Positions 19,320 to 28,698 are shown, counted from the stretch's first letter. The stretch: 64,000 nt of DNA from an uncultured Phycisphaeraceae bacterium (GCA_964640595.1 CAZXGL010000019.1:5075-69074), one strand, 5' to 3'. Notes: generated by a model not told the origin, from the letters alone. Made by a program: numbers and translations.

Positions 19320-20492
19320 TCAGTCCGCCGCGGTTGCGTAACCGCCCCGGACAGGGCGGATGCCCGGTGGCAGGCTGTCCGCCTGATAGACGGATGTGAT
19401 CTGTGCAGGGGAGATCTGGGTATTGAACAGCGAGACCCGGGCGACGGAACCGAAGATCGGATTCGACTGGCTGTAGGTGGAGAACGGGATGTTCCGCACT
19501 CCAAAGTACCAGTCGTAGTTGTTGACCGGTCTGGACAATAGAACCTGATTGAGATCGACCCGGATCCCCGTATCTCGTGCCATGCGAACACCGTCCAAGT
19601 ATATTTCCATCCCCGCGTTGCCCCATGTGATGGCCATGAAGTGCCACTTTCCCTGTTGGATTGCGGAGCTGGGGAATCGGATCGACCCGCCGCGATTCAG
19701 CGAGTTGTTGAGCATGTAATATACATAATCATGCTCGAGGTAGACCGCAAGATTGATGGCAAGACCCGCAGGGCTTCGCTCCTTCGCAACCACGGCCATC
19801 TGCTGCCCCGGCATGGTCGGCTTGAGGTCGAACCGGACCCAGAGCGTGAGGGTGCCATCGGACAGCTCGAAAGCGCTGGCGTGCGGTACGCGCACAAACT
19901 CGGTCATCCAGGTGATGCGGGGGGCCGGACCGCCATGAACATGCGTGTAGGCACCCGCTGCCACGGGTACGGCGTAGTTCGCGTGGCGGTTGGCGATCTC
20001 ATCCGTACCGACCGGCTGGTTGACCTCCTCCAGAGGCCAGTATGCAATGGCCGTGGGCATGGATGACATCAGGATTGATAGCGCATCATCCGGCGTGTCC
20101 AGGAGCATGGAAAGACGGGAAGTCGTGTCGCCAACAGTGGCCGTGGTGAGAACACGGAAGTTCTTGGTTGTCGGTGTCACGGTTGATTTCGTATCCGCAT
20201 CGAGCACGCTGGCCGAGATGAATCCTGGGGCCAGCGACAACCCGTCAAAGAGCAGACCGGAACCTGCCTGTTTCCGGAACTCCACCTCGTCGGCCGCCGC
20301 GGCATGGACCACCAGCTCCGCCCCAGAGATGGCCAACCGACGGACGGCGCTGGCGTCACCACCCAGGCTGGCACGCTCGTGGAGATGCTTGCGGAGCGTG
20401 ACCCCCGTCAGCACGAGCGAAGTGACCGCGGTCACCACCACGAGAATCGCCAGATACACACTCCCTTGCCGATTGGAGGGGTGAGACATCAT
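19320..20492 (-). CDS. GspK/PilX-position terminal pseudopilin-like protein carrying a LamG (concanavalin A-like lectin) domain
   Basis: N-terminus RQGSVYLAILVVVTAVTSLVLTG (uncleaved GspK-type helix). The C-terminal half has ELSDGTLTLWVRF...QGKWHFMAITWGNAGMEIYLDGVR, the Laminin_G_3 pattern. ATGA overlap with the upstream pseudopilin gene. Confidence 0.65.
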   Translation of the reverse strand: MMSHPSNRQGSVYLAILVVVTAVTSLVLTGVTLRKHLHERASLGGDASAVRRLAISGAELVVHAAAADEVEFRKQAGSGLLFDGLSLAPGFISASVLDADTKSTVTPTTKNFRVLTTATVGDTTSRLSMLLDTPDDALSILMSSMPTAIAYWPLEEVNQPVGTDEIANRHANYAVPVAAGAYTHVHGGPAPRITWMTEFVRVPHASAFELSDGTLTLWVRFDLKPTMPGQQMAVVAKERSPAGLAINLAVYLEHDYVYYMLNNSLNRGGSIRFPSSAIQQGKWHFMAITWGNAGMEIYLDGVRMARDTGIRVDLNQVLLSRPVNNYDWYFGVRNIPFSTYSQSNPIFGSVARVSLFNTQISPAQITSVYQADSLPPGIRPVRGGYATAAD

Positions 20493-21007
20493 GATCCTCT
20501 CCCGTAATCATCAAATGCCTTCGTCCGGAGCATCGATCGTTCCGCCATCAGCACGCCGTTGAGCGTGACGCTCACGACGACACGCTTCACGCCGGTCGCT
20601 GTCCCTTGAACGCTCGATGGATTCGAGGCAAGCACATGATGGACACTGACACTGATCGTCCATCCGGATGCGAGTCCGCTGATCGCCGAACCGTCCGGGT
20701 GACGCGGCGGAGCTTTCCATCCGTGATAATCATCGACATCATCAAATGCAATGCGTGATCCCGTGACCTCGCCCGATTCTGGACCGTTGGTGCTGGTCGG
20801 ATTCGTAGGATCCTGGAACGGATGTGCGGCGATCTCGTCCAGCATCGCGTCGGCCAGGGCATTGGCAGTCACCCGACGGTCCGCAAGGCCGGTGGCCCGC
20901 GCGGTGGGAGCGACGATGTGCATTGTGGAAGCCAGCACGCCGCCGACAAGCAGGGATCCGATCACGGTTTCCATCAGGGTGACGCCACGACGGAAGGAAG
21001 TCACCAT
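20489..21007 (-). CDS. minor pseudopilin (GspI/PilV-like)
   Basis: N-terminus RRGVTLMETVIGSLLVGGVLAS, a degenerate G-[FV]-T-L-[IM]-E prepilin motif. Confidence 0.6.
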   Translation of the reverse strand: MVTSFRRGVTLMETVIGSLLVGGVLASTMHIVAPTARATGLADRRVTANALADAMLDEIAAHPFQDPTNPTSTNGPESGEVTGSRIAFDDVDDYHGWKAPPRHPDGSAISGLASGWTISVSVHHVLASNPSSVQGTATGVKRVVVSVTLNGVLMAERSMLRTKAFDDYGRGS

Positions 21008-26791: not shown

Positions 26792-28698
26792 GCCGCGACC
26801 CCCTTCGCGTCAGTCCCGTCCGATCCCGCGTGTCCTGGCTGCGGCGCGGATCTGTCCTCGTCGTTGTGCGTGACGCGGATGATCTCTTCCAGGCTTGTCC
26901 TCAGTTCGAGCGCCAGCCGCACGCCCTCCTCGCGCAGATTGAGCTGACCGTGTCGCTTGAGCGTTTCACGCAGCTCATGTGATGGTGCTTCGCGGTAAAC
27001 CATGCGCCGGATTTCCGGTGTGATCTCCATCAGCTCATAGATGCCAAGGCGACCCTGGAATCCTGTGTCGTGGCATGCCGCACAACCGGCCCCCTTTCGG
27101 AAGGCCCGTCCGACCATGCCGGAGAGCCCCGCGTCCGCCAGAACACGCTCGGACGGATAGTACTTGGTCGAGCATGAGTCGCAGATCATGCGGGCGAGAC
27201 GCTGGGCGACCACGCCGTTGAGGGCGGCGCTGATGAGGTAGGGCTCAACTCCCATATCGACAAGACGAGCGATCGCTCCGGGGGCATCATTCGTGTGCAG
27301 TGTGGCCAGCACGCCGTGCCCCGTCAGAGCGGCCTGCACCGCGACATGCGCCGTCTCCTCGTCACGGATCTCGCCGACCATGATGATGTCCGGATCCTGA
27401 CGCAGAATCGAACGCAGGGTGCGCCCGAATGTCAGGCCGATGCTCTCGTGAACCTGGATCTGATTGACCATGTCAAGCTGGTACTCGACCGGATCCTCGA
27501 CGGTAACGATGTTGTGCTCCGGGCTGCGGAGCAGGTCAAGGGCGGAATAGAGGGTGGTGGTCTTTCCCGACCCCGTCGGTCCCGTGACCAGGACCAGCCC
27601 GTGGGGCATCCGCAGAACCCGCTGGAAGGTCTCCAGGGCCTCGGTGCGGAAACCCAGATCCTCCATGCGGACATGCAGGTTCTGCTTGTCCAGAATCCGA
27701 ATGACCAGCTTCTCGCCGAGCAGCGTGGGAATGCTCGATACGCGGAGGTCGATCTCCCGCCCCTCGGCCACGATGCGCACCCGCCCTTCCTGCGGCATGC
27801 GCTTCTCGGCGATGTCCATTTTTCCGATGATCTTGACCCGGGAAACGATGGCCGCGTGCATGCCGGGCGGCGGCTTCATGAGGTCGCGCAGACTCCCGTC
27901 GATGCGATATCGGATCCTTGTTCCCTTCTTGTCCGGCTCGATGTGGATGTCCGAAGCCTTGTCCTTCACCGCCGTCAGCAGGGCCACATTGACCAGATTG
28001 ACGATGGGCGACCCCTCGACCATCTGATCCAGATCGGTGGTCGGCCCGTCATCGACCCGTTCACGCTCGACGACCTCCACATCGCTCTCGGCCAGGCTGG
28101 TCAGGAACGCGTTGACATCCACATCCCCGCCCTGGTACTTGCGGATGTACTCGAGGATGTTGCCCTCGATCGCGAGCACCGGGCGGATCTCCATGCCCGT
28201 CAGCTCGCGCAACCGGTCGATATTCGGCAGACTCTGTGGCTCGGCCATCGCCACCGTCAGCACGCCATGAACGCGGAACATGGGGATGGCCAGCATCCGC
28301 TCCGCCTCTTCAGCGCCGATGAGGGAAAGCAGCGCCGGGTCGATCAGGCCGTGCCGGAGCTGAACACCACGCACCCCAAGGCATTTGGCCAGGGACTGCA
28401 CCAGCGTGGCACCGGAGATCATCCCCTGCTCGACAAGCAGCTCGCCGAGCTTCATGCCGCTGGTGCGCTGATCCGCCAGCACACGGGAGAGCTGATCTTC
28501 GGAGATATGCCCCTCGGACAGCAGCACCTCGCCCACCATCCGCGGACGCCCGACCCGCCGGGCGCGACGATCGTCCCCGATCGCGCGTCGTTCGGGCCTG
28601 TCTCCCCGCTTGTCGGGCATGCCAACCCGCCGATCAGCGGGGACATACCGATCATCCGGGATCGGTCCGTGCATCGGATCTATGGGCGGCACCGTCAC
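26788..28698 (-). CDS. GspE/PilB-family secretion ATPase with MshEN-like N-terminal motifs
   Basis: Walker A GPTGSGKTTT, Asp box, Walker B, His box and a CxxC...CxxC tetracysteine (CDSC...CAAC). GTG 28698 overlaps the STAS stop (GTGA). The start is uncertain; ATG 28674 and later ATGs are possible. Confidence 0.9.
   Translation of the reverse strand: MTVPPIDPMHGPIPDDRYVPADRRVGMPDKRGDRPERRAIGDDRRARRVGRPRMVGEVLLSEGHISEDQLSRVLADQRTSGMKLGELLVEQGMISGATLVQSLAKCLGVRGVQLRHGLIDPALLSLIGAEEAERMLAIPMFRVHGVLTVAMAEPQSLPNIDRLRELTGMEIRPVLAIEGNILEYIRKYQGGDVDVNAFLTSLAESDVEVVERERVDDGPTTDLDQMVEGSPIVNLVNVALLTAVKDKASDIHIEPDKKGTRIRYRIDGSLRDLMKPPPGMHAAIVSRVKIIGKMDIAEKRMPQEGRVRIVAEGREIDLRVSSIPTLLGEKLVIRILDKQNLHVRMEDLGFRTEALETFQRVLRMPHGLVLVTGPTGSGKTTTLYSALDLLRSPEHNIVTVEDPVEYQLDMVNQIQVHESIGLTFGRTLRSILRQDPDIIMVGEIRDEETAHVAVQAALTGHGVLATLHTNDAPGAIARLVDMGVEPYLISAALNGVVAQRLARMICDSCSTKYYPSERVLADAGLSGMVGRAFRKGAGCAACHDTGFQGRLGIYELMEITPEIRRMVYREAPSHELRETLKRHGQLNLREEGVRLALELRTSLEEIIRVTHNDEDRSAPQPGHAGSDGTDAKGVAA

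Follow-up and report, generated by a model that had tools for sequence, protein, structure and literature searches.

A type IV filament operon of the Phycisphaerae without a secretin gene of its own

How does a type IV filament machine reach the cell surface when its operon encodes the inner-membrane apparatus and no secretin, and should such a machine be counted among the pili or among the secretion systems? The question is raised by a group of genes, here called locus A, in an uncultured Phycisphaeraceae bacterium (GCA_964640595.1), whose genome of 3.28 Mb in 76 contigs is about 95% complete. The stretch of 64,000 nucleotides that was analysed, referred to as the window, covers positions 5075-69074 of contig CAZXGL010000019.1 (G000:C19:5075-69074 in the numbering used here, in which C denotes a contig). 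Locus A consists of 13 co-oriented open reading frames (ORFs) on the minus strand at 19320-30887, in the order HK-STAS-E-F-M-N-O-P-G-H-J-I-K: a histidine kinase (HK), a STAS-domain protein, an extension ATPase (E), a platform protein (F), three alignment proteins (M, N, O), a connector (P), four pilins (G, H, J, I) and a subunit at the K position.

With a probability of roughly 0.68, locus A encodes a self-contained, signal-controlled machine of the supergroup that comprises type IVa pili (T4aP), type II secretion systems (T2SS) as well as mannose-sensitive haemagglutinin (MSH) pili; it would be typical of the Phycisphaerae, would use a secretin encoded elsewhere, and would likely build a glycan-binding filament on the cell surface. 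Such a filament, which would serve to adhere or to capture substrates, is a more likely output than protein secretion of the classical sort. The components of the generic type IV filament definition, namely an ATPase, a platform protein and a major pilin (PMC6668835), are all recognised by profile hidden Markov models (HMMs), with 439 bits for T2SSE, 180 bits for T2SSF and N_methyl matches in G, H and J.

The operon and its distribution

Locus A is a real 13-gene operon that is conserved across the class Phycisphaerae. The PilM-like gene is present in 9/9 genomes of the genus, in 20/24 of the family and in 4/5 other sampled families of the order, and the full order from HK to K is kept in all nine genomes of the genus. 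Of 20 fetched regions from relatives, 17 carry the system, and in 15 of these iterated HMM searches found every gene from M to K. A wider scan with the G alignment, using one genome per species, yielded 268 relatives, the best 80 of which were examined. Nearly all of these 80 are labelled Phycisphaerae, Phycisphaerales or Planctomycetota; the complete order recurs in about 60 of their loci, and in most of the 80 the kinase gene keeps its synteny with those of the STAS protein and the ATPase. Among them are a Tepidisphaera metagenome-assembled genome, Poriferisphaera sp. WC338 and two records labelled Phycisphaera mikurensis and 'Phycisphaerales bacterium ac7', the latter a complete genome. Judged by gene order and by the trees described below, the whole set is inherited as a unit, as one lineage of the supergroup.

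The true start of the operon is the kinase gene, two genes upstream of E, with which the initial annotation of this DNA had begun. The kinase (29049-30887, minus strand, as are all genes of the operon) is a membrane protein with PAS_4, HisKA and HATPase_c domains, and its translation starts at ATG 30887 or at an upstream start at 30911. It is followed by the STAS-domain protein (28695-29033; STAS 52 bits). Upstream of the kinase gene, three tRNA genes (31017-31430) and a terminator-like hairpin after tRNA-Tyr (31014-30994) part locus A from the genes of an OmpA-like lipoprotein and a prepilin peptidase; apart from this hairpin, a scan for consensus promoters and terminators stayed at background level.

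The genes are closely joined. The stop codon of the STAS gene overlaps the start of the ATPase gene in the sequence GTGA at 28695-28698, and ATGA overlaps are found at the E/F (26788), F/M (25562), M/N (24519), N/O (23944) and I/K (20489) junctions, with a 1-nt overlap in TGATG at the H/J junction (21505). The M/N overlap holds for a PilN start at ATG 24522, and not for the longest-ORF start at 24573. Short gaps without overlap separate O from P, P from G and G from H, and the gap between J and I is 3 nt. A Shine-Dalgarno-like AAGGAG precedes ATG 22622 of G, and GAGGAG precedes ATG 22059 of H, a start that was picked from this site together with the orthologue alignment. Overlaps at 7 of the 12 junctions are an enrichment over the genome-wide baseline of 16.5% for co-directional overlaps of 1 or 4 nt (rough binomial P of about 0.001), a baseline that comes from a crude codon-model gene caller, which missed N and I and set some starts wrongly. 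The overlaps, including that between the STAS and ATPase genes, recur in orthologous loci. The initial annotation had read the order from the ATPase to K, the seven overlaps of 1-4 nt and the tight coupling of the genes correctly: the ORFs lie in place on the minus strand, and every overlap is present in the junction sequences.

Motor, alignment proteins and pilins

The extension ATPase E (26788-28698) belongs to the PilB/GspE/MshE class. Its NCBIfam scores are 574 bits for TIGR02538 PilB and 563.8 bits for TIGR02533 GspE, both under the cut-off, which for TIGR02533 is 630.25. In comparisons with solved structures it aligns over its full length, including an N-terminal MshEN-type domain, with the PilB proteins of Geobacter (501 bits) and Myxococcus (486 bits), and its core alone scores alike against Thermus PilF (369 bits) and against Vibrio GspE (369-376 bits). 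The N-terminus is thus of the PilB/MshE type, and the core is equidistant from the solved PilB and GspE proteins. Like MshE, the ATPase of the MSHA pilus, E carries an MshEN domain (54 bits) and passes the cyclic di-GMP (c-di-GMP) motif model NF053729 in region 56-105 (57.6 bits, cut-off 38), so that c-di-GMP binding is predicted; in the first 24-residue motif of this region, Met is read in place of the consensus Arg. The inner-membrane platform F (25562-26791), of the GspF/PilC family with two T2SSF repeats, fits best the NCBIfam model TIGR02120 GspF (346.6 bits, cut-off 424), ahead of the PilC models (248-261 bits). Equivalog level is reached for neither GspE nor GspF.

The window copies of N and O are too divergent for single-sequence models, and orthologue sets were therefore collected and each scanned. 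M (24519-25565), a cytoplasmic actin-like protein, passes Pfam PilM_2 even by itself, with 33.5 bits against a gathering score of 27, and 45/56 of its orthologues match this family (best E 1.4e-21). T2SSL, the family of GspL, is matched by 0/56 of them and by nothing else in the genome. The bitopic protein N (23944-24522) matches Pfam PilN in 50/63 orthologues, and its family conserves an N-terminal motif, (I/V)(N/D)L(L/I)P, in forms such as IDLLP and INLIP; in Thermus and Pseudomonas this peptide is the part of PilN that binds PilM. The second bitopic protein, O (23396-23947), reaches 17 bits for PilO in the window copy, under the cut-off, and its 60 orthologues match PilO in 48 cases (best E 7e-11), T2SSM_b in 29 and T2SSM in 21. 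The O family matches both PilO and T2SSM models because these families are related.

The connector P (22758-23357, with a likely start at ATG 23321) is best described by its fold. An AlphaFold2 model built from 62 orthologues, with a mean predicted local distance difference test (pLDDT) score of 80.8 and means of 88-98 for 10-residue blocks over approximately residues 121-180, begins with a membrane helix, which a helical linker connects to a beta domain of the homology region (HR) type at the C-terminus. The top Foldseek matches are the HR domain of GspC in the GspC-GspD complex (3oss_C, TM score 0.77 on the target), GspB (4wfw), LspC, PilP (2lc4) and the HR domain of PulC; the E-values are weak for so small a domain, and all five belong to one family. 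Among the 62 orthologues, T2SSB is matched by 22, T2SSC by two and Pfam PilP by none. P has no lipobox, and for this reason its anchoring is closer to that of GspC and GspB than to that of PilP. The model places P among the HR connectors of the PilP/GspC/GspB class, with a predicted affinity for the N0 domain of a secretin; binding secretin N0 is the known role of HR domains. GspL, GspM and GspC are homologues of PilM-PilN, PilO and PilP. The four middle genes do not belong to unrelated families, and the matches of M, N and O to the PilM, PilN and PilO sets, the absence of T2SSL and the fold of P bear out an alignment complex of PilM, PilN, PilO and a PilP/GspC-type HR protein, much as first proposed, and not of the GspL/M kind.

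The four pilins G (22131-22622), H (21505-22059), J (21011-21505) and I (20489-21007) have class III signal peptides with Glu at position +5. The major pilin G is about 148 residues long when mature, lacks a cysteine pair and, with a mean column identity of 51%, is the most conserved of the nine aligned non-motor proteins from M to K. It scores 39 bits for TIGR01710 GspG (cut-off 88.85), and 1/60 of its orthologues matches T2SSG; among the PDB matches of its profile, none is longer, or extends deeper into the globular part, than that to GspG 5wda (positions 17-118). Its cleavage site, RPA/FSLIE (the slash marks the cut; window 22575-22580), has Ala instead of Gly at -1, and most orthologues read RRA/F here. 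The H-type minor pilin (N_methyl; MRHG/FTMVE) scores 33 bits for TIGR01708 GspH, under the cut-off of 80. The pilin at the J position (KRG/FTLIE) has an N_methyl match, and 53/54 of its orthologues match N_methyl and nothing else; it is 164 residues long in the genus and 350-550 residues in other families of the order (for example L022:13584-14741 and L030:13529-15172), so that a sizeable insert or additional domain is present in some lineages and missing from others. At the I position (RRG/VTLME), N_methyl is recognised through the orthologues only (39/58), T2SSI is matched by 2/58 at E 0.02, and TIGR02523 PilV gives a weak 22.5 bits. A competence (Com) pilus was considered and set aside: matches to ComG models are weak and hardly extend past the N-terminal pilin region, and the operon contains no genes for DNA uptake.

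The last gene, K (19320-20492), encodes a subunit of the tip type. Its pilin-like N-terminal helix is without Glu at +5 (RQG/SVYLAILVV), as is also the case in GspK and PilX, and its Laminin_G_3 score of 44.6 bits lies over the cut-off of 27.6. The AlphaFold2 model (pLDDT 90.7, predicted template-modelling score 0.78) contains a helix at 9-67, a four-stranded sheet with strands at 80-132 and, from about residue 148, a C-terminal jelly roll of the concanavalin-A/LamG type. The Foldseek matches are generic lectin-type jelly rolls, which dominate the search to the point that it says nothing on the likeness of the pilin part to GspK or PilX; no GspK (T2SSK) domain was found in K or in its orthologue set. 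Among 49 orthologues (L037-L116), Laminin_G_3 is found in 15, CBM_4_9 in four and an ice-binding-like adhesive domain in one, and the rest have no Pfam domain; the C-terminal module is exchangeable. In its architecture K recalls PilC of Streptococcus sanguinis, a modular, glycan-binding pilin at the filament tip that carries a concanavalin A-type lectin module and has been modelled together with the minor-pilin complex (PMC9934059). PilC, however, belongs to a monoderm system and has an extra Ig-like module, whereas locus A comes from a diderm and bears the module on its K-position subunit; glycan binding by PilC is established and that by K is predicted.

The prepilin peptidase gene upstream of the tRNA genes (32243-33679, minus strand; A24_N_bact 107 bits, Peptidase_A24 25.5 bits) is the only clear copy in the genome, and tblastn found no second full copy. 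It is syntenic with locus A within the genus only, and it probably serves all filament systems of the genome. At the other end of the operon, a response regulator gene and an HD_5 (HD-GYP-type) gene on the plus strand (16562-19203) converge on K; the HD_5 protein is a possible c-di-GMP phosphodiesterase, adjoining an operon whose ATPase has a c-di-GMP-type motif.

The secretin and the sister operon

The absence of a pilQ or gspD gene after P, which the initial annotation had pointed out, is not confined to the window. No match to the Secretin family was found on the whole 69.9-kb contig, the region adjacent to the window included, and a home-made secretin HMM, applied to roughly 10 kb around the G or PilM gene of 97 related loci, gave no match, nor, in the best 80, even at E = 10. 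The same HMM recovered all positive controls, each secretin paralogue also when it was left out of the model. Genome-wide, four secretins were found, all on other contigs (C10, C14, C4 and C31).

The PilM profile recovers full-length relatives across the phylum, and in 19/20 of these loci the same strand carries a secretin gene 2-3 kb downstream. In the ATPase tree two lineages stand apart, one being a C3-type system, to which the paralogous PilM-N-O-P-ATPase genes on contig C3 of the genome belong, and the other the locus A clade together with two loci, L141 and L117, of a different planctomycete family (support 100/99); the PilM tree gives the same grouping more weakly. In L141 (G089:C2:14000-33999), the order is STAS-E-F-G-G-G-H-J-K-I-M-N-O-P-secretin. 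This sister operon shares with locus A the STAS protein, E, F, the G-type pilins, H, J, K, I, M, N, O and P, and differs in that the pilin block stands between F and M and in that a secretin of 509 residues (Pfam Secretin 147 bits, with Secretin_N and STN) follows directly after P; no kinase was detected upstream. The three tandem G paralogues and the position of K before I (L141:2980-16539) indicate that the order of the minor pilins is not fixed in this lineage. In other planctomycetes the C3-type lineage is arranged as pilins-M-N-O-P-secretin-HK-...-STAS-E'-(PilT)-F. Because the nearest related operon has its secretin right after P, the absence of one from locus A would most simply be a derived loss or relocation in the Phycisphaerae.

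Among the four secretins, the PilQ-like protein of C10 is the best candidate partner. It is the closest of the four to the L141 secretin, with 146 bits against at most 79 for the others. Three pilin genes stand before its gene, the two closest paralogues of G among them, and the gene of a TPR lipoprotein comes after it. The secretins of C4 and C31 are GspD-like, the former adjoining a GspE-like ATPase. The C14 secretin (1,155 residues, G000:C14:64043-67510) is very divergent, its similarity to solved secretins being confined to about the last 80 residues. Phylogenetic profiles of the C10-, C14- and C31-types in 41 relatives do not discriminate among them; the C31-type occurs in 18/41 relatives and does not track locus A, which is found in 26.

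Just downstream of the C14 secretin lie a STAS protein and an RsbW-like kinase with HATPase_c_2 (L004:2284-3118, that is, G000:C14:67664-68498). The STAS gene follows this secretin in 8/10 relatives and the kinase in 7/10, genomes without locus A included, and the pairing of a secretin with a partner-switching module is unusual. A link between this pair and the STAS protein of locus A was rejected, given the conservation of the pair in genomes that lack locus A and an identity of 23% between the STAS proteins. The genome also holds at least five further filament-machine loci, all of them fragmented (C3:47365-52664, C10:57579-63793, C13:60275-66906, C4:128065-132349 and C5:94217-98473); the pieces on C3, C10 and C13 together match a single operon of other planctomycetes (L118+L139, L122+L137). 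Many relatives outside the genus have secretin-like segments inside giant frames of approximately 2,500-4,800 residues (for example G028:C26:14597-15154 and G020:C1:245547-246371), which the genus itself lacks.

Between pilus and secretion system

In the favoured reading, the single prepilin peptidase would process G and the minor pilins H, J and I, and the H-J-I-K set would prime the filament. K would cap the tip, since it lacks Glu at +5 and carries a lectin-type jelly roll. The PilB/MshE-like ATPase may drive the GspF-like platform to polymerise the filament, with PilM, PilN and PilO as the inner-membrane alignment ring, and the membrane-anchored HR protein P would link this ring to the N0 domain of the secretin encoded elsewhere, C10 being the best candidate. 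The kinase, the STAS protein, which is translationally coupled to the ATPase, and probably c-di-GMP would gate the motor.

Several observations weigh against this reading. No gene for a PilT retraction ATPase was found within the operon; PilT-like genes occur in a second locus of the window, locus B (60203-61327), and on contig C13. Pfam sees a lectin-type module in only about 40% of the K orthologues. In other planctomycetes the C10-type secretin adjoins the C3-type PilMNOP set, which makes it, by descent, a part of another system, and its sharing with locus A is therefore an assumption; the C10-type and C14-type secretins are moreover present in 41/41 relatives, with or without locus A. The preference for a loss in the Phycisphaerae over a gain in the sister lineage draws on parsimony and on the general pilMNOPQ order rather than on a rooted tree. 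Finally, the platform fits the GspF model best, and the major pilin is short and without cysteine pairs, like the pseudopilins, and on these two grounds a role in secretion keeps part of the probability.

Such a role would make locus A a divergent T2SS, in which the GspG-like pilin, with H-J-I-K as primers, forms a short periplasmic endopilus that drives folded exoproteins out by way of a secretin from another locus, and in which the module of K recognises the cargo, for instance glycosylated or carbohydrate-active proteins. Like the T2SS (GspC-M and GspO; Pul, Eps, Xcp), locus A has its motor, its platform and its alignment proteins in one operon with a G-H-(I/J)-K set; P has a membrane anchor and an HR domain as GspC and GspB do, with T2SSB matched in part of its orthologues, the ATPase core is as near to GspE as to PilF, the GspG structure gives the longest match to G, and PilT is missing from the operon. 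An actual T2SS is nevertheless unlikely. Separate PilM and PilN genes stand in place of GspL, O is closer to PilO than to GspM, P is without a PDZ or coiled-coil domain, no GspD is encoded in the locus, and the N-terminus of the ATPase is of the PilB/MshE type with its c-di-GMP motif. All NCBIfam Gsp models stay under their cut-offs, no T2SSJ or T2SSK signal was found, no candidate cargo genes lie in the operon, and the genome's separate GspD-GspE pair and F-G-pseudopilin cluster could be the true T2SS. Locus A also resembles T4aP, as known from Myxococcus, Pseudomonas, Thermus and Geobacter: besides PilM, PilN with its INLLP-type motif, the PilO-like protein, the HR-fold connector and an ATPase alignable over its full length to the PilB proteins of Geobacter and Myxococcus, the minor pilins number four (FimU/PilV/PilW/PilX in T4aP), and the last of them is without Glu at +5. 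Locus A differs from T4aP, in turn, in the lack of pilQ after P, of PilT and of PilY1, in a P held by a membrane helix where PilP is a lipoprotein, in a short major pilin that has no disulphide-bonded D-region, in a lectin-type module borne by K itself, and in the kinase and STAS genes at its head.

The initial annotation had described a T4P/T2SS hybrid with T2SS-like fibre genes. In favour of a hybrid are the mixed affinities within one operon, with PilM/N/O-type alignment proteins, a GspF-like platform and weak GspG and GspH scores for two pilins. The T4aP-like M, N and O proteins and the HR connector stand; the fibre part of the description is not borne out. An H-I-J-K minor-pilin set for initiation is common to T4aP and T2SS, so that a T2SS-like fibre is unsupported beyond the weak resemblance of G to GspG, which itself reaches 39 of the required 88.85 bits and T2SSG in one orthologue of 60; J and I match N_methyl models, and K has no GspK domain. 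In the literal sense, with the alignment module of a T4aP joined by recombination to the pseudopilin and motor module of a T2SS, a chimera is highly improbable, although 'generic' systems of TXSScan-type schemes are said to include chimeric ones (PMC6668835). The same components occur in the sister loci L141 and L117 in a different internal order, the ATPase tree agrees, as does the PilM tree more weakly, and every T2SS-specific signal is under its curated cut-off, all of which point to a single lineage in which the set is inherited as a whole. The origin of both T2SS and MSH is placed inside T4aP (PMC6668835), so that mixed affinities are expected for a deep branch. A machine that works without any secretin, its filament staying in the enlarged planctomycete periplasm or leaving by a non-secretin route, would account for the 97 loci without a secretin in cis and for the failure of the profiled secretin types to co-vary with locus A. 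It is very unlikely all the same, as P keeps a conserved and confidently modelled HR domain, a secretin stands next to P in the sister operon, and the other filament loci of this genome are also split from their secretins, so that separation is the rule here.

What remains favoured is a filament machine of the supergroup that docks on a secretin from another locus. As a kind of system it is not new: a published count lists 884 'generic' systems outside every specific model, some with components matching the profiles of different types (PMC6668835), and locus A would fall into this class. Planctomycetes are not mentioned in the main text of that study, and in searches of the literature no account of this operon was found.

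Models derived from proteobacteria commonly serve to assign type IV filament machines to the pili or to the secretion systems, and locus A is a class-wide case that fits neither. Its inner-membrane machine is complete, with PilMNO as the ring and a connector of the secretin-binding type, yet it has no secretin, which its closest relative keeps, and the question of how such a machine chooses or shares an outer-membrane pore becomes testable. A sensor kinase and a STAS protein are tied to the motor, the latter by translational coupling, and a swappable module of the sugar-binding type sits on the tip subunit. A bolder and rather doubtful picture would be that of a filament gated by signals (kinase, STAS protein and c-di-GMP), whose exchangeable lectin or carbohydrate-binding tip captures polysaccharides, and which, having lost its own pore gene, docks with its HR connector on a secretin that also serves another pilus system. 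If this were true, two inner-membrane machines would compete for one outer-membrane channel. It would also give a genetic handle on the glycan-binding fibres of other planctomycetes, such as the dextran-binding fibres seen on Planctopirus and Gemmata (PMC5394234). The operon is present in culturable relatives (Poriferisphaera sp. WC338, the 'Phycisphaerales bacterium ac7' genome and the record labelled Phycisphaera mikurensis), and it bears on how polysaccharide-degrading planctomycetes attach to glycans or harvest them.

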